Virus record (IMG/VR): IMGVR_UViG_2703718771_000014
Origin: a virus
Lineage: Duplodnaviria > Heunggongvirae > Uroviricota > Caudoviricetes
DNA length: 18,288 nt
Strand: one strand, 5' to 3'
Shown here piece by piece: positions 1,553 through 16,441 of the stretch. The stretch's first letter is position 1, and the number at the start of each line of letters is the position of its first letter. Both the position numbers and the translations under genes were made by a program. The notes below the pieces were generated by a model. The model was not told the DNA's origin, ran no database searches, and worked only from the letters and a program-made list of their open reading frames with translations.

Positions 1553-1753
1553 TCACGAGGACTGAAGTTGCTCGCAATTAAAATTTATCAGTTTTACTTT
1601 CTGCTCTCTGGAAACGCCTGCTTCTTTTTTACCTGAGAGCATTTTTTCGCATTCTGATTTGGTTAATTTTGTTTTTGAGTACCTTGTCCAGTTAGTAGGA
1701 GTGCCACCTTCCTTTTCAATAGTGGCGGTAATTTTATACATGAACACCTCCAT
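1553..1753 (-). CDS. Small phage protein, YdaC-like; start ambiguous (ATG at 1813, 1753 or 1741)
   Basis: Track ORF 1553..1813. A GGAGG lies 5 nt upstream of the ATG at 1741 and overlaps the 3' end of ralR. The position between xis and ralR matches the Rac gene order. Confidence 0.55.
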   Translation of the reverse strand: MEVFMYKITATIEKEGGTPTNWTRYSKTKLTKSECEKMLSGKKEAGVSREQKVKLINFNCEQLQSS

Positions 1754-3055: not shown

Positions 3056-6000
3056 TCAGATGCTCAGTGCTTCAAGACGACGAAGATCAAAGTCGTTTAA
3101 TTCGTCGGTATAACTTTCGGTAATCGGTGCTGGCCAGTTGTTTGTCTCCAGGGCTTCGTTTATCTGGCGTAGCGTCCGGCGATATTCCTGTCGACCAAGT
3201 TCCAGGAGTTCCTGCGAGGCTTCCACGACTGCCACCCAGTGATAGCCAGCATCTTTGTTGACGAAGATCCAGAAAAATTTGTCCAGGTTTGCCACATCGC
3301 AATACATTGCGGCGCTGAGGTGATAATCACGCTCAATAATTTCACGGTGCAGGCGATCTTTAAGTCGTTCCTGTCGCACATAACCGAGGCTGACTGACTT
3401 CACGTCAGCGCAAATGCTTTCGTATGGCAGCCGGATTTCGATATCAGGACGGACCCTGATTTCCAGCCCGGTTTCTTCATCAAACCCGAAATAGCTGATT
3501 TCAGATTTGCGATCCGGGTGGTTGAGTAGCCTTGCTGCATCGGTATTGTTTTGCAGTGCCGCGTGAATATTTTTTGCCTGTTCATACATCTCCGGACTGA
3601 TAAACGTTTTCCCGGCATTTTCTTCTTGCTGGCGTTTTTGCCAGTCCTCCAGTGTCACCAGTTCCGGGCGAATTTTCCGTGCGATTTCGGTTAATTGCTC
3701 TTTTGTGCCACTGATGTTGTAAGGCAAAGATTTAGCACGTTCTTTTTTTGCCAGTTCTGGGTCTACAGTTTCAATTTGATCCAGAAGCTGCTCCCGTGCT
3801 CCACTGGTTTTCAACAGAGGAGGGAGGCTTGCGTTGTATTCTTTAATACAGGCTTTCATTGCTGATGCTGTGTGTTTTTCCCCCTCAGGAATACGCCGAA
3901 ATTCCACCGGAAGCGAACCGTAAAGGATGCCTGTTTCTTCGGCCCCGGCACTTACAGACAGTGGCTGTATAAGAGTGCTGTTGTAGCTTTCGATCCACTC
4001 TTTCATCTGCTCTGGTGTCATCAGTGCTGGCAGACTGGCATTGTGTTTTTTAATGATGGCGATCAGTTCGCTAGAAGTAGTAACCACATATTCAGGAACC
4101 GGTACCGGAATGGCATATTCATCAGCGAATTTATCCGTTTCCAGAACATAGCTGTGAATGATCCGCCCACGCAGCAGTGCATCACTTTCCTCGTTCGGAA
4201 TAGTTCCGGCAATGTGCCGTCCGTGGTAATACATCAGGCTGATACGGGCATCCTTCAGCATCGTGCTGCTTATTCCGTTGGCGGAGTGATAAACCTCGTT
4301 CGGGAGGTTTTCATAGCGGCCAGGCTCGAAATATGACGGCCACATGATTTCAGTTGCTACAGGAGCTGACGCTTCACCAGTTTCATCACTGCAATCACGA
4401 TGCGGATCGCTGCCAGCATTCTCATTGTGCGGATGTTCAGCGCCTTCCATTTCCTCCGGATCATTTTCCTTAGCTTCAACCTGATTCTCTTCATCGAATG
4501 TTTCCTGGTATGTTGCGTCGCCCATCACCGCACCACAGTCAGGGCAGTTATCCCCGCCAGTCTGACCGCAGGCATTGCAGACTATTTCCGGTTTCTGTTG
4601 CACTACTGGCTCAGGTTGTTTCACATCCGGGCTGGTTTTTACAGTTTCTGGCGTGTTTTGTTTCGTTTCTGGCTGGTTCTGGTACACAGAGTCGCGAGTC
4701 TGGATCCCCTTTACCCATTTCGGATCGTTCGGGTCGCTAATTCCGTCAACAAATTCACCACGTGATGCAGCAAGCAATTTATCGGCATCGACAGGATTTT
4801 TTGATGGAATGTTTTTCCGGGCTTCATGGAGTTCTGCCCGCAGTTTCTGATATTTCGCATCAACAGAATTTACCTGTGACTGAGCATCCAGCGGCTGCGT
4901 GTCCTGATGATGTTCAGTTGCATCCGGTTCCACTGTTTCAGCCGTTGCCTGTTTATCTGCCATTGCGCAAGATGGTTGCGGTTTTTCTTCACCATCGTGT
5001 TTTCCTTCTTCTGTTACACGCTGCGGCATTGGGGCAGAGGAACGACCGCAGGCAATATCCACGATTTCCGGATCAGGGTTGGCATGATCGGTTTCAATCA
5101 GCACCTTGTTCAGATATTCAGTGACATGCGCAGGGATAACCTCGATCCCAATTGGTGCTTCTTTTACGGACGCAACCACGATGGCGCGGGAATAATCCAG
5201 CCCGCCAGGCATGGTGATGAATTTGTCGCGGAAAACAGAAAAGGGCGGTTTATTTTCAGAGATAATTTCCTCGACACGTTTAGCGTGTGCCGGATGAAGG
5301 TTATAAATGTCCACGTCCATTGAACGGGCCAGGACGCCAGTGGCTACGTCGCGCGCCAGTGACGTCAGATCGTGAACGAAACCTTCGCCGCGATCGGTGA
5401 GGTTCCCGCCGCCAGCATTAGCGCCGGAAGCCGTGCGCGTGATGCGTGAAACACGATTTCCTTTCATCCACTCTTTTGTCAGCAGACCACGATCGGTGTA
5501 GTCTGCGTCCAGGTATGCTTCGAAAAAAGCAGTCATCAGCCCCAGGCTTGAATTGCCTGGATTAGGGAAAACTCTGTCAGTATCACGCACCAGTTTGTGG
5601 AGATCGCGAATTTCCAGCGGGTCGAGCAGGCTGGTTTTGTGGGAAACAGCCAGGGCAGTAACAGCTGGTAGTTCTTCAGCTCGTGCAATGTGTAATGCCT
5701 GGAGTTCGTCGCGTGAAACGTGCGTTACCGGTTTTTCGCTGCCGTGTTGAGCAAGCCAGCGAATGGGCAGCTCCTGACCGGAAATCGGGAGTAGCATATT
5801 CTCCTCAATCTCCGTCATGTCTTCGCCATTAACATTGGTATTGTCAGTGCTGGCTGGTTTGTCCTGCGCAGAGGATGAGGGCGCGATAAATACCATTGTG
5901 ATGCCATCTTCCCCGCCTTTTTTGTAACGGTTGCAGAATTCCGTATCAAATACGCCCTCTGGTGGAAGGTCATCAACAACGGGCAAATTGACGCGAACAG

Positions 6001-7023: not shown

Positions 7024-7592
7024 AATTATCTCCATTTTTACAAATGAATTTTGTCGATGCGGTGCCTGGTGCCTCCAGGTGACGTTAACCAGTTAACAAT
7101 TAACGCCGGATACAGAGAATCCACCCATAACACTGTTTTTGGTTTTAACTGTTCCGCGTGCGCTTAGCCGCATTCACCGCATCACAAAATTCACTTTAAA
7201 AAGGGCGGCAGAGCAGCCACGGAGTAAAACTGATACCGCCAAACGTCACCAGAAAATTGATAACAGAGGGCGTTGCAGCGGGGTTGTCACTTAAGCGTAT
7301 GGTCAACCTGACAACCCGGTGTCCTCAATGGGGAAGGAATAACCCCGCCATACTTACCGCCGCGCCATTTCGCGGAGTGCCACAACCGGAAGCGCACGTT
7401 CGAAGAAATCTAACGACAAGCCTTCTGAGGGAAAGAGCTTCGCCGTACGCTTTCGCGTTATGCCCTGACTTTTCAGGGAAATATCCTTTCAGTAAACTGT
7501 CAGTACCGGATTCTTATCCGTGTCCGGCGCACGACCACACGTGACAGCGTGTTGGTCTCCATTTTTAACCCAGAACCTCAATGGAGGATAAA

Positions 7593-12966: not shown

Positions 12967-13551
12967 ATGACCACTTTTACAAAAGAGCAGTTAATCAGTC
13001 ATGTTAGTGAAAATGTAAAGGCGATGAAATTTGCAGTAAAACAGACAGCATTCAAAAATTCTCTCGAGGCAATTGAGTTGGATTTAGCACTGGCCCTTGT
13101 TGCTCAGGCTTCGCTGGAAGCAGAGCCCGTGCTTTATATGAATCGATTTACCGGAAAGACATTCTCACTGGAAGAGCAACCCGGTGCTGATAAGGAACCG
13201 GAAATATACGTGCCGCTATATGCTGCCCCGCCAGACAGCGCCGCCATGCTTCAGGCTGGAAACTTTCGGGAAAAGAAGGGTTCGTCAACCAATAATTTTC
13301 GGGAAATCTCGGAAACGTCAACCAACTATCCGGTAACTCTGGATGGTTGGATAAGCTGTAGTGAGCGAATGCCGGATGACGGTCAGCACGTAATTATTTT
13401 ATGTGATGGCGCATTCGTTCTTTATGCGCAATATCGAGACGGTGAGTTTTTTGATGTAGTCCGTGATGGTGATGAATTTTTCGAAACACAGAGCCGCAAT
13501 GTAACCGACTGGATGCCGCTACCAGAACCGCCGCAGGAGGTGCGCCAATGA
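12967..13551 (+). CDS. Hypothetical phage protein with a DUF551-like C-terminal domain, 194 aa from the ATG
   Basis: The ATG at 12967 is preceded by AAGGAG at 6 nt. The track ORF starts at a GTG at 12907. The C-terminal DGWISCSERMPDD...VTDWMPLPEPP resembles DUF551 as I recall it. Confidence 0.65.
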   Translation: MTTFTKEQLISHVSENVKAMKFAVKQTAFKNSLEAIELDLALALVAQASLEAEPVLYMNRFTGKTFSLEEQPGADKEPEIYVPLYAAPPDSAAMLQAGNFREKKGSSTNNFREISETSTNYPVTLDGWISCSERMPDDGQHVIILCDGAFVLYAQYRDGEFFDVVRDGDEFFETQSRNVTDWMPLPEPPQEVRQ

Positions 13552-13631
13552 ACTGGCCTGAAGCATTTGCAATTACAGGCGTTGCTATGGCTATCGCTTT
13601 TTTAGTATATGTTATTTGTCGGTGGGGGTAA
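13548..13631 (+). CDS. Tiny hydrophobic peptide, 27 aa, one predicted transmembrane helix (below the track cut-off; hand-translated)
   Basis: ATGA overlap with the upstream stop. The translation is MNWPEAFAITGVAMAIAFLVYVICRWG. Confidence 0.4.
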   Translation: MNWPEAFAITGVAMAIAFLVYVICRWG

Positions 13632-13666
13632 AAACGTTCGCCGGGATTAACACCAAAGGAGGGAAT

Positions 13667-13771
13667 ATGTCGGATGATATTTCACTGGCAATGGAAGGTG
13701 CGCTGGCTGTTATTGCTGTTGTGGGCGTTTACTGCCTGGTTGTGTTTTTGATGGATCGACTAGGGAACTGA
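13667..13771 (+). CDS. Tiny hydrophobic peptide, 34 aa, one predicted transmembrane helix (below the track cut-off; hand-translated)
   Basis: AGGAGG lies 4 nt upstream of the ATG. The translation is MSDDISLAMEGALAVIAVVGVYCLVVFLMDRLGN. Confidence 0.5.
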   Translation: MSDDISLAMEGALAVIAVVGVYCLVVFLMDRLGN

Positions 13772-14016
13772 ATTCATTACGATATGGGAATTCCCATATC
13801 GGGTAAAAACGGTTTGCGGTAAAGCGAGAGTTAAGTAGAATTGCTGCGGGTGCTTGAGGCTATCTGCCTCGGGCATGAACACCAACGGCAGATAGAGAAA
13901 AGCCCCAGTTAACATTACGCGTCCGGCAAGACGCTTAACATTAATCTGAGGCCATATCTATGCTCTACACACGTAGGTTAGCCTCTTACGTGCCGAAAGG
14001 CAAGGAGAAGCAGGCT

Positions 14017-14172
14017 ATGAAGCAGCAAAAGGCGATGCTAATCGCCCTGATCGTCATCTGTTTAACCGTCATTGTGACGGCACTGGTAACGAGGAAAGAC
14101 CTCTGCGAGGTACGAATCCGAACCGGCCAGACGGAGGTCGCTGTCTTCACAGCTTACGAACCTGAGGAGTAA
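14017..14172 (+). CDS. hokD: Hok/Gef-family type I toxin (HokD/RelF), 51 aa
   Basis: AGGAG lies 8 nt upstream of the ATG. The translation MKQQKAMLIALIVICLTVIVTALVTRKDLCEVRIRTGQTEVAVFTAYEPEE matches my recollection of K-12 HokD. The track ORF begins at an in-frame ATG at 13960. Confidence 0.9.
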   Translation: MKQQKAMLIALIVICLTVIVTALVTRKDLCEVRIRTGQTEVAVFTAYEPEE

Positions 14173-14240
14173 GAGACCAGGCGAGGGAGGAATCCCTCGC
14201 CACCTCTGATGTGTCAGGCATCCTCAACGCACCCGCACTT

Positions 14241-14264
14241 AACCCGCTTCGGCGGGTTTTTTGT
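14241..14264 (+). terminator. Intrinsic terminator downstream of hok
   Basis: AACCCGC-TTCG-GCGGGTT followed by a T run. Confidence 0.8.
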
Positions 14265-14446
14265 TGCGTGCTGAATGCGTAGGGTGAAAAATAACCATAT
14301 ATTAGATTATATACACAACAAAAAATAAAAGTCATTGTACCTGCACATTAAACAATCAAATATACGGCGTGAAATAAATATTTTTCAGATTAATATTTTT
14401 GTCTCTATGTGGATATAACCTTTTGTACTTATAAACTGGGGGCATC

Positions 14447-14659
14447 GTGGAAAAAATAAAGAAACTATTTAGTAGCAAATACGCAGTCATACGTCGTGAT
14501 GACCTGTCAGTTATAGTCGAAATGGATTACTTCCCTGAAACCCCAAAATCAATGATGTATCGTAATGGTCGAAAGGCAATTTTTTTACCGATGAGGGTAA
14601 GTGACATTATGGGAAATGATAAACTGCTGGATGAATTGCGAGTCAGAGCATCCTGTTAG
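14447..14659 (+). CDS. Hypothetical small protein, 70 aa, possibly Rem-like; GTG start
   Basis: Track ORF starting at GTG. It lies after a strongly A+T-rich region and is itself A+T-rich. Its position after hokD parallels the K-12 Qin order (hokD then rem) as I recall it. Confidence 0.45.
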   Translation: MEKIKKLFSSKYAVIRRDDLSVIVEMDYFPETPKSMMYRNGRKAIFLPMRVSDIMGNDKLLDELRVRASC

Positions 14660-16171: not shown

Positions 16172-16197
16172 CTCAATCTGTTATCCGGGGCTATATT
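16168..16197 (+). promoter_or_regulatory. Late promoter candidate (PR'-like): TTGACT-18-TATATT
   Basis: TTGACT at 16168..16173 overlaps the Q-like stop codon. TATATT at 16192..16197. A hairpin (CGCCAG-caaaat-CTGGCG) lies just downstream. Confidence 0.6.
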
Positions 16198-16258
16198 CCT
16201 CACGCGCCAGCAAAATCTGGCGTCGGGATTGGAACCCCGGATAGAGACCGCGACAGAC

Positions 16259-16280
16259 ACACGCCGCGAGCGTGTTTTTT
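16259..16280 (+). terminator. Intrinsic terminator (tR'-like) about 70 nt downstream of the late promoter
   Basis: ACACGC-CGCGA-GCGTGT followed by TTTTTT. Confidence 0.7.
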
Positions 16281-16441
16281 ATTGTCGTATGCACGCGCAC
16301 ATCTGAATTATGGTGGGGCGCATGGGGGAGCTGAAAAGCTCGCCGGTCGGTTTCCCGGTAGTTCCAACCCTGTGCGTCTCACCACCCGATGATTGGAACC
16401 TGACGGTGGTGATAGTTTAGAAACCACCAGAGGGCGTCATT

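Follow-up and report, generated by a model that had tools for sequence, protein, structure and literature searches.

[quoted passage not shown] Within the window, by which we mean the whole stretch of 18,288 nucleotides that was analysed, the cassette travels as cargo of a Rac/Qin-like lambdoid E. coli prophage, in whose early-right (nin) region it lies. The hok/mok/sok module is of an ordinary type, and the locus is a standard prophage hok/sok module rather than a regulatory oddity. Such modules are common: hok is enriched in prophages, and of 5426 complete E. coli genomes, 4020 carry the intact module.

The toxin gene (14017-14172, plus strand) encodes a 51-aa protein that is 100% identical to K-12 HokD by tblastn, and that matches both Pfam HOK_GEF (E=1.2e-23, the gathering score of the family being 22 bits) and PHROG 251 (E=2.8e-33). 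As the preliminary description had reported, it has a Shine-Dalgarno (SD) sequence, AGGAG at 14003-14007, and a terminator downstream, a hairpin at 14241-14258 followed by a run of T (Rho-independent terminator, 14241-14264, plus strand). The open reading frame list also holds a 70-aa mok frame (13960-14172, plus strand), which shares the reading frame of hok, as mokC and mokW do, has a GAGG SD at 13949-13952, 7 nt upstream of it, and is homologous to the annotated mokW of phage 933W and to "MokC" (ECs_1520) of strain Sakai. Together with the leader, the fbi (fold-back inhibition) element and the terminator, mok and hok make up a predicted full-length hok mRNA spanning 13848-14264 on the plus strand. 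The Rfam sok/hok-leader model (RF01794) matches over its full length at 13848-14022, scoring 111.7 bits where the gathering score is 59, and the 416-nt RNA folds with a minimum free energy of -172.7 kcal/mol (z=-6.9). The ends of both the hok and the Sok transcripts are placed here by transfer from homologous systems. A putative hok promoter can be read from the sequence at 13814-13841 (plus strand), with TTGCGG (13814-13819), a 16-nt spacer and TAGAAT (13836-13841). It is a weak match to consensus that the promoter scan did not flag, but it is correctly placed for an mRNA that begins at 13848, the first position matched by the Rfam hok-leader model; an equivalent promoter, TTGGCG-17-TAGAAT, was found by the scan in phage Tritos.

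Folding the hok RNA and looking for long-range pairing, as had been proposed earlier, brought out the pairing expected of a hok mRNA. The tac element at the 5' end (13848-13859, plus strand) pairs with its 3' partner fbi (14222-14234, plus strand) through 12 base pairs, with pair probabilities of 0.958-1.0 (at least 0.96 to two decimals), and when the 3' end is removed from the mRNA, the 5' end refolds into a local hairpin. Across 125 distinct modules tac is invariant, and the variants of fbi are only those that keep the pairing, either G-U wobbles or changes at a bulged base. A covariation test of tac and fbi yielded one-sided, pairing-compatible changes only, the modules being too similar to one another.

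On the opposite strand, a Sok gene with its own promoter, complementary to the translation-initiation region of mok, is present, and its expression is predicted. The Sok antisense RNA would be about 71 nt long (13898-13968, minus strand; coordinates transferred from the sokW annotation in 933W), with a 5' tail that is single-stranded and spans the start and SD of mok, followed by a long terminator hairpin and a U-rich end, and it folds with -30 kcal/mol (z=-4.3); its hairpin carries an 18-nt insertion relative to the Rfam consensus. The promoter (13975-14003, minus strand) consists of a -35 hexamer TTGCCT (14003->13998), a 17-nt spacer and a -10 hexamer TAACCT (13980->13975), and is identical in sequence to that of sokW. 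The preliminary description had seen no obvious Sok-like antisense promoter over the hok start, a promoter that was missed because its -10 hexamer is non-consensus, and had suggested that hok may be under different control here. One may indeed consider that this hok lacks Sok control and is otherwise regulated, for instance by the upstream peptides, since a simple consensus scan flags no Sok promoter; yet the leader matches RF01794 in full, the Sok promoter and RNA match those of the validated sokW exactly or nearly so, and the tac-fbi pairing is present. Every canonical hok/mok/sok element is in place, with 94% identity to hokW-sokW of 933W, so that a hok free of Sok is already refuted at the sequence level and is, in our judgement, extremely improbable. 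[quoted passage not shown] HokD, identical to the Hok protein described here, serves as a toxic control (bioRxiv 10.1101/2025.08.07.668861). Toxicity of Hok, its neutralisation by Sok, and killing that is post-segregational or linked to induction would be expected at this locus by analogy with the identical HokD and the 94%-identical hokW-sokW.

By homology to R1 hok/sok and to hokW-sokW, the cassette's own weak promoter would start the hok mRNA near 13848, and pairing of the 5' end (tac) with the 3' fbi element would keep this mRNA inert. Slow trimming of the 3' end would release the lock, allowing translation of mok (13960) and, through mok, of hok. As long as the short-lived Sok RNA (13968->13898, minus strand) is supplied it would pair with the mok initiation region and block translation; once its supply stops, either by loss of the element or upon prophage induction, Hok would be made and the inner membrane damaged.

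Upstream of the cassette lie the two short hydrophobic ORFs already recognised in the preliminary description, each of which has one strongly hydrophobic stretch of at least 17 residues. The first, a 27-aa single-pass membrane micro-ORF (13548-13631, plus strand; MNWPEAFAITGVAMAIAFLVYVICRWG), follows a DUF551 phage gene (12907-13551, plus strand; Pfam DUF551 E=1.1e-20, in agreement with the PGAP annotation of a homologous locus). Its ATG is overlapped by the TGA stop of DUF551 (13549-13551), and this ATGA start/stop overlap implies translational coupling to the upstream gene. A perfect AGGAGG SD had been credited to the second small ORF only; it is indeed there, but the 27-aa ORF has one too, at 13535-13540, inside the DUF551 gene and 7 nt before the ATG. 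Homologues of the 27-aa ORF are carried by about 97 phage records, and they always begin in an ATGA overlap, behind genes as unrelated as DUF551, Ea22 and L0139 of 933W; the overlap, the SD and the length are conserved, the length being invariant among homologues that are 55-70% identical. Among 32 nucleotide alleles encoding 23 peptides, pN/pS was 0.30 for the reading frame itself and 0.85 and 1.72 out of frame. As far as can be read from sequence, the ORF thus looks like a "tail" gene, placed behind a variety of early phage genes and coupled to them in translation. A mixed protein cluster hinted at a frameshift fusion between DUF551 and the 27-aa peptide; this was rejected, since the 121-aa members of the cluster do not contain the peptide, and the mixed cluster is therefore a clustering artefact. 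Inspection of the DUF551/27-aa junction by eye revealed no obvious slippery heptamer.

The second ORF, of 34 aa (13667-13771, plus strand, SD AGGAGG at 13657-13662; MSDDISLAMEGALAVIAVVGVYCLVVFLMDRLGN), likewise encodes a single-pass membrane protein, and is known from PGAP and Sakai annotations: in prophage Sp6 of E. coli O157 Sakai it is ECs_5710, part of XECs145. ECs_5710/XECs145 was reported to be transcribed and ribosome-covered in LB, with an RCV of 4.35 and a coverage of 0.99 by RIBOseq, in a strain that has several similar prophages, where multi-mapping is possible, and the ORF as published reaches further 5', beginning at an upstream start and comprising 53 codons (PMC5597208). A canonical Sok RNA together with untranslated peptides had been named beforehand as the outcome that would speak against the earlier reading; the Sok gene is present in the sequence, whereas the 34-aa ORF has this published RIBOseq signal. 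Besides the 34-aa form (class A), a divergent class B of 29-30 aa also occurs upstream of hok; identity between the two classes is about 50% for the protein and about 55% for the DNA. Within-class pN/pS is 0.25 for class A and 0.22 for class B, against 0.7-2.3 out of frame. The class B ORF is present, though unannotated, in about 1700-2300 of the 5426 complete E. coli genomes. In a wider taxonomic search, relatives of the 34-aa family were found only in Escherichia and Shigella, besides metagenome-assembled (MAG) contigs whose 90-100% identical matches probably derive from Escherichia DNA. When the peptide strings were sought in the full-text literature, main texts gave no match and a supplement gave one.

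Could both small ORFs have arisen by chance and yield no protein? They are indeed very short, annotations almost always omit the 27-aa ORF, and neither peptide has a credible match in Pfam, PHROGs or NCBIfam. On the other hand, the purifying selection is frame-specific, length and start/stop overlap are retained across homologues that have diverged to 55-70% identity, both SDs are perfect, and the 34-aa ORF has a RIBOseq signal, all of which makes chance a very unlikely explanation. Both ORFs look like real small membrane-protein genes under purifying selection, and to that extent the earlier idea that the peptides might be further membrane-active toxins or holin-like modulators holds; evidence for a toxin or a holin was not found. 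A role as holins or antiholins was not supported: the ORFs sit in the early replication/nin block and not in the late lysis cassette, the holin and lysozyme genes of a homologous prophage being about 6 kb further downstream, and no holin family in Pfam, PHROG or NCBIfam matches them. The peptides being truncated Hok paralogues was rejected, local alignments against shuffles giving p=0.13, 0.34 and 0.08 and thus no similarity to Hok that exceeds composition.

An independent type I toxin, with an antisense RNA antitoxin of its own, encoded by one or both ORFs would suit the small size and hydrophobicity of the peptides, and a minus-strand promoter-like sequence, TTGCCA-16-CATATT (13691->13664), would drive a transcript complementary to the SD of the 34-aa ORF. 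Such promoter-like matches, however, are within chance (five found, 2.2±1.5 expected), and this one is not kept in class B, whose counterpart of the -10 is missing the key A. Nor was a minus-strand terminator or an Rfam family found for such an RNA: at permissive E-values, a search of the window and of phage Tritos returned only the hok leader. The 200-nt leader of class B is not unusually structured (z=-1.0), which gives no support to a hok-like fold-back either, and ribosome coverage of the 34-aa ORF in growing cells would be odd for an unrepressed toxin. We therefore consider additional type I toxins to be unlikely, and keep to separate small membrane-protein genes in front of an ordinary hok/sok module.

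Between the 34-aa ORF and the hok promoter there is a perfect 22-bp palindrome (13780-13801; CGATATGGGAATTCCCATATCG), with one match in the window where none was expected. Nearly all class A loci have it behind their small ORF, near-palindromic variants occur in loci L023, L052/L053 and L264, and a U-tract is absent downstream. It may perhaps be a candidate insulator hairpin or protein-binding site.

The association between the small ORFs and hok is one-sided. Every class A or class B ORF with enough DNA to judge has hok or a hok remnant downstream; among non-redundant loci hok is directly downstream in 59 of 59 for class A and in 52 of 57 for class B, the five exceptions being hok remnants. 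Viewed from hok, only about 15 of 65 contexts carry a class A or B ORF. The 29-34-aa family is exclusive to hok neighbourhoods, in contrast to the 27-aa gene, which is coupled to many different phage genes. In a hok-centred sample of the best 80 matches, whose contexts are phylogenetically related, an SD-preceded hydrophobic ORF lay upstream of hok in 33 of 57 contexts, compared with 0/57, 0/42, 2/286 and 1/61 in controls, and these ORFs belong to three unrelated families: the 27-aa ORF, the 29-34-aa ORF and a 59-aa two-helix ORF. The frequent presence of small membrane-protein ORFs, from three unrelated families, in front of hokD-type cassettes is a mildly new observation.

The frequency of such ORFs hints at a link with hok, which the main explanation treats as hitch-hiking.

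One may also consider that hokD cassettes of Escherichia prophages are larger units, in which one or both upstream membrane proteins are functional accessories that work with Hok, as modulator, immunity or protective factor or co-toxin, or feed the transcription of hok or Sok. Divergent as they are, the class A and class B ORFs are both followed directly by hok modules sharing about 95% identity, the boundaries of the class B cassette (leader, ORF and hok/sok) are sharp on both sides, and the upstream contexts exceed the near-zero controls with three unrelated families. Nevertheless, hok does without them: 933W has only the 27-aa ORF, many contexts have none, and hokW-sokW acts as a complete toxin-antitoxin system on a plasmid (PMC8621323). 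Because most hokD cassettes lack the 34-aa ORF, the small ORFs are not needed for hok/sok function. In addition, the 27-aa ORF is often far from any hok, hitch-hiking within a cassette lineage would also produce one-way linkage, and the upstream counts come from related contexts among the best 80 matches. An accessory role thus appears rather doubtful, although clearly less so than the other alternatives, and separate genes that travel with a self-sufficient hok/sok module are the preferred reading. Should the upstream peptides after all interact with Hok, the limits of prophage hok cassettes would have to be drawn anew. The two conserved membrane micro-proteins, very widespread in E. coli prophages and mostly unannotated, may be of modest value to research on small proteins of bacteria and on type I toxins; the hokW-sokW plasmid construct in the literature itself starts at the 27-aa ORF, which is unremarked there.

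Among known systems the closest is hokW/mokW/sokW of the Stx2 phage 933W and of Sakai Sp5 (AF125520; PMC8621323), with 94% nucleotide identity over the module (13804-14244). As here, 933W has an in-frame mok, the identical Sok promoter and the extended Sok hairpin, and a homologue of the 27-aa ORF lies immediately upstream, ATGA-coupled to the preceding gene. The proteins differ at the C-terminus (…FTAYEPEE here, …FVDYESEK in HokW), and the module of 933W comes after L0139-L0142, whereas here it is in the replication/nin block. Both the 34-aa ORF and the palindrome are absent from 933W; here they form an insert of about 175 bp between 11-bp direct repeats (GGGTAAAAACG). In Sakai Sp6 the arrangement is the same as here: the DUF551 gene (ECs_1518), the 27-aa ORF, ECs_5710 and mok/hok (ECs_1520).

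R1 hok/sok (parB) shares the architecture (tac/fbi, mok, Sok against the mok initiation region, terminator) and belongs to the same Rfam and Pfam families. Its Sok promoter, TTGCGC-17-TATCCT, is in the same place as here, while its mok is out of frame with hok, unlike the in-frame mok described above. The Sok hairpin is longer here than in R1, and the R1 protein is only about 44% identical, a figure given for HokW (PMC8621323).

The familiar hokD (relF) of K-12, downstream of relBE in the Qin prophage, is 98% identical in DNA from the hok SD to the terminator, but homology begins only at 14003, and the hok promoter, tac, the mok start and the Sok gene are absent from K-12, their place being filled by relBE. 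The absence of relBE noted in the preliminary description was borne out, no RelB or RelE homologue occurring anywhere in the window (tblastn E>0.03), and strain LF82 has, at the same prophage position as K-12 hokD, an intact cassette with a class B small ORF. The relE-hokD junction is found in 1164 of the 5426 complete E. coli genomes. The K-12 relBE-hokD copy is thus a 5'-truncated derivative and the state without relBE is the normal one, which corrects a common bias: the K-12 layout is a rearranged exception, not the reference state.

The hok gene of this prophage is very probably under canonical control. Its product (14017-14172, plus strand; 51 aa) matches Pfam HOK_GEF (E = 1.2e-23) and PHROG 251 ("MokW-like host killing") and is 100% identical to HokD of K-12; on the same strand lie its Shine-Dalgarno (SD) sequence, AGGAG (14003-14007), and a terminator made of a G+C-rich hairpin and a T-run (14241-14264). 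The preliminary description was right in what it observed, since the Hok protein, SD, terminator and two small ORFs of 27 and 34 aa are all found in the sequence, and no relatives of RelB or RelE were found across the whole 18-kb window. Its readings that no obvious Sok-like antisense promoter lies over the hok start and that hok may be under different control were not supported. The Rfam "sok" model represents the leader of the hok mRNA, 5' end through hok start codon, and aligns over its full length to 13848-14022, scoring 111.7 bits (gathering score, 59). The mok frame (13960-14172, plus strand; 70 aa) opens 7 nt downstream of a GAGG and continues in frame into hok, as do the annotated mokW of phage 933W and "MokC" of Sakai. 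The long-range pairing typical of hok mRNAs, suggested earlier as a check, is present in the computed fold of 13848-14263 (-172.7 kcal/mol, z = -6.9), where tac, the first 12 bases of the mRNA (13848-13859), pairs with its 3' partner fbi (14222-14234), each pair having a probability of 0.958-1.0; in an mRNA trimmed back past fbi, the computed 5' end forms a local hairpin instead. Among all 125 distinct module copies tac is unchanged, and the few fbi variants still pair.

A gene for the antisense RNA is there as well. Positions 13804-14244 are 94% identical to the 933W locus with annotated sokW, mokW and hokW, and coordinates transferred from sokW place a 71-nt Sok RNA on the minus strand (13968->13898), with a predicted fold (-30 kcal/mol, z = -4.3) in which the 5' tail, covering the mok start and SD, stays free ahead of a long hairpin with its U-rich tail. 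Its promoter, also on the minus strand (TTGCCT, 14003->13998; 17 nt; TAACCT, 13980->13975), is identical in sequence to that of sokW. It had been overlooked because TAACCT fits the consensus poorly, and an automatic promoter scan missed it too. Exactly this -10 region was replaced with primers YO-421/422 in a "pro-less" mutant that unmasks HokW toxicity, growth being partly restored by sokW in trans (PMC8621323).

The window is a lambdoid E. coli prophage resembling Rac and Qin, carrying RalA, DicF, isrK and C4-type RNAs, with the gene order of its closest annotated relative (recET, kil, ydaT, replication genes, DUF977, DUF551, hokD, DUF1367, DUF1364, Q-like gene). A second type I-like toxin-antitoxin of this prophage, ralR/ralA of Rac, is recognisable by a full-length RalA antitoxin RNA (1557-1735, plus strand; Rfam 215 bits). 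DicF lies at 7203-7254 (minus strand), and directly downstream of the Q-like gene is an isrK/c4-a1b1/C4 antisense RNA cluster (16191-16389, plus strand), a P1/P7-type antisense immunity or anti-Q arrangement. The hok terminator is followed by a very AT-rich spacer with two promoter-like matches on the minus strand (14280-14440) and by a conserved 70-aa ORF (14447-14659; PHROG 1813, function unknown; PGAP hypothetical WP_001356604.1).

Upstream of hok, the 27-aa ORF (13548-13631, plus strand) has its ATG in an ATGA overlap with the stop codon (TGA) of the DUF551 gene, and its perfect AGGAGG lies 7 nt upstream within that gene. By tblastn, homologues at 55-70% identity occur in about 97 phage records and are almost never annotated. 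The ATGA overlap was present in every case examined, the virulent phage Av-05 included, and the preceding genes are mutually unrelated (DUF551, Ea22-like, L0139 of 933W, hypothetical genes). For 32 nucleotide alleles (23 peptides), pN/pS was 0.30 in frame versus 0.85 and 1.72 when the frame was shifted; of 172 occurrences, 153 are 27 codons long and the remainder are a 25-codon variant, and the peptides share the motif M-x-W-P-[ED]-A-[FI]…G…[YF]…[CF]-R-W-G. The ORF is often far from hok, standing alone in 16 of 102 non-redundant contexts, typically near xis/int, and we take it to be a separate, translationally coupled micro-gene. Pfam, PHROG and NCBIfam gave no matching family. Its grouping with 121-aa DUF551 proteins in a 90% identity collection is a clustering artefact, as the sequences share nothing, and such artefacts could mislead searches that use very short proteins.

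The 34-aa ORF (13667-13771, plus strand; a PGAP hypothetical protein, annotated as ECs_5710 in Sakai prophage Sp6) represents class A of a family found in Escherichia and Shigella only. A longer call of its frame, XECs145, was covered in a Sakai RIBOseq study, with the reservation that reads may multi-map among Sakai prophages: in LB the RNA RPKM was 79.1, ribosome RPKM 346.1, RCV 4.35 and coverage 0.99, and in BHI the RCV was 1.14 (PMC5597208). Class B members (29-30 aa, V(V)LVLKCALAIAAVMAIYCLAVVLMDRLSD) have a GTG start and their own AGGAG(G), and share with class A about 50% protein and 55% DNA identity. Within the classes pN/pS was 0.25 and 0.22 in frame versus 0.7-2.3 out of frame, and single-site variants comprised 24 synonymous and 14 non-synonymous changes, where about 26% synonymous would be expected at random.

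Compared with 933W, the class A segment has about 175 bp extra, comprising the ORF and a perfect 22-bp palindrome, CGATATGGGAATTCCCATATCG (13780-13801), which lies behind the ORF in almost all class A loci. An 11-bp direct repeat, GGGTAAAAACG, flanks the two (13626-13636 and 13801-13811), whereas 933W has one copy, at the junction of the 27-aa ORF and hok; the segment therefore resembles an insertion with a target-duplication-like repeat. The 22-mer (2204-2225 of locus L005) also occurs within a gene for a "DNA-binding protein" on the minus strand of phage vB_EcoS-666R9, and locus L264 has a diverged, still palindromic version upstream of hok.

The class B ORF lies directly upstream of hok behind a conserved leader of about 200 nt, for example in phage Tritos (leader and ORF at 1318-1610 of its locus) and E. 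coli LF82 (5001-5331). Diversity profiles delimit a cassette of about 870 nt (leader, ORF and hok/sok) with sharp edges on both sides. Leader and ORF were matched over at least 80% in 1677 of 5426 complete E. coli genomes and in part in 2268, and no annotated feature was found beneath them among the matches listed. Where non-redundant IMG/VR loci extended far enough, hok lay at most 700 nt downstream of the class B ORF in 59 of 59 cases and of the class A ORF in 52 of 57, the five exceptions all keeping either a disrupted hok module or remnants of the DNA upstream of it. The linkage is one-way: in a hok-centred sample, limited to the best 80 matches and with contexts related by descent, only some 15 of the 65 contexts upstream of hok had a class A or B ORF. 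In that sample 33 of 57 non-redundant upstream contexts had, on the same strand as hok, a hydrophobic ORF of 20-70 aa with an SD before it, against 0/57 in the reverse complement, 0/42 downstream of hok, 2/286 random window segments and 1/61 far-upstream segments. Three unrelated families are represented among these ORFs, the third being a 59-aa ORF that encodes two hydrophobic helices (MKNALQFLFVAFWLF…CIEYWR), has no match in Pfam or PHROG, and lies about 70-250 nt before the hok promoter in three IMG/VR loci (L270, L260 and L266). We consider this recurrence a lead rather than a result; the only mildly new point is that small membrane ORFs recur directly upstream of hokD-type cassettes, together with the confinement of the 29-34-aa family to that position.

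The two peptides are probably real small membrane proteins. For the further suggestion that they might be toxins or holin-like modulators, sequence comparison gave no support: neither had significant similarity to Hok beyond composition, and we found for the small ORFs no conserved antisense promoter, terminator or Rfam family, no lysis-cassette context and no holin family match.

The hok/sok module itself is already known and extremely common, and hok enrichment in prophages is documented (bioRxiv 10.1101/2025.08.07.668861). Of 5426 complete E. coli genomes, 4020 have at least 80% of the intact module (13829-14262), and the median number of matching places was two per genome with any match. 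By homology, the copy studied here probably plays the same role as hokW-sokW of Sakai prophage Sp5, a working type I toxin-antitoxin in which mitomycin C makes sokW RNA vanish, HokW is produced RecA-dependently and localises to the inner membrane, and phage release is about twice that of the deletion mutant (PMC8621323). Speculatively, since early-operon transcription runs in the hok direction here, read-through during induction could interfere with the convergent Sok promoter. The pBAD18-hokW-sokW insert of that study (primer YO-432; 1927-1949 of the 933W locus) begins 6 nt before the ATG of the 933W homologue of the 27-aa ORF, and the construct therefore also had this unrecognised ORF under the arabinose promoter.

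A hok module without relBE is the normal state. Homology to K-12 hokD extends only from the hok SD (14003) to the terminator, at 98% identity, and therefore the promoter, tac, mok start and Sok RNA gene were lost there to the relBE segment; Pedersen and Gerdes, in 1999, reportedly called hokD inactivated by rearrangement. The hok SD (AAGGAGA) is the exact breakpoint of independent rearrangements of the module: K-12 retains the right side fused to relBE, and loci L023 and L153 retain the left side fused to unrelated DNA; this point may be a recombination hot spot. The K-12 type of relE-hokD junction occurs in 1164 of the complete E. coli genomes. The Qin-like prophage of LF82 carries an intact cassette where K-12 has relBE-hokD.
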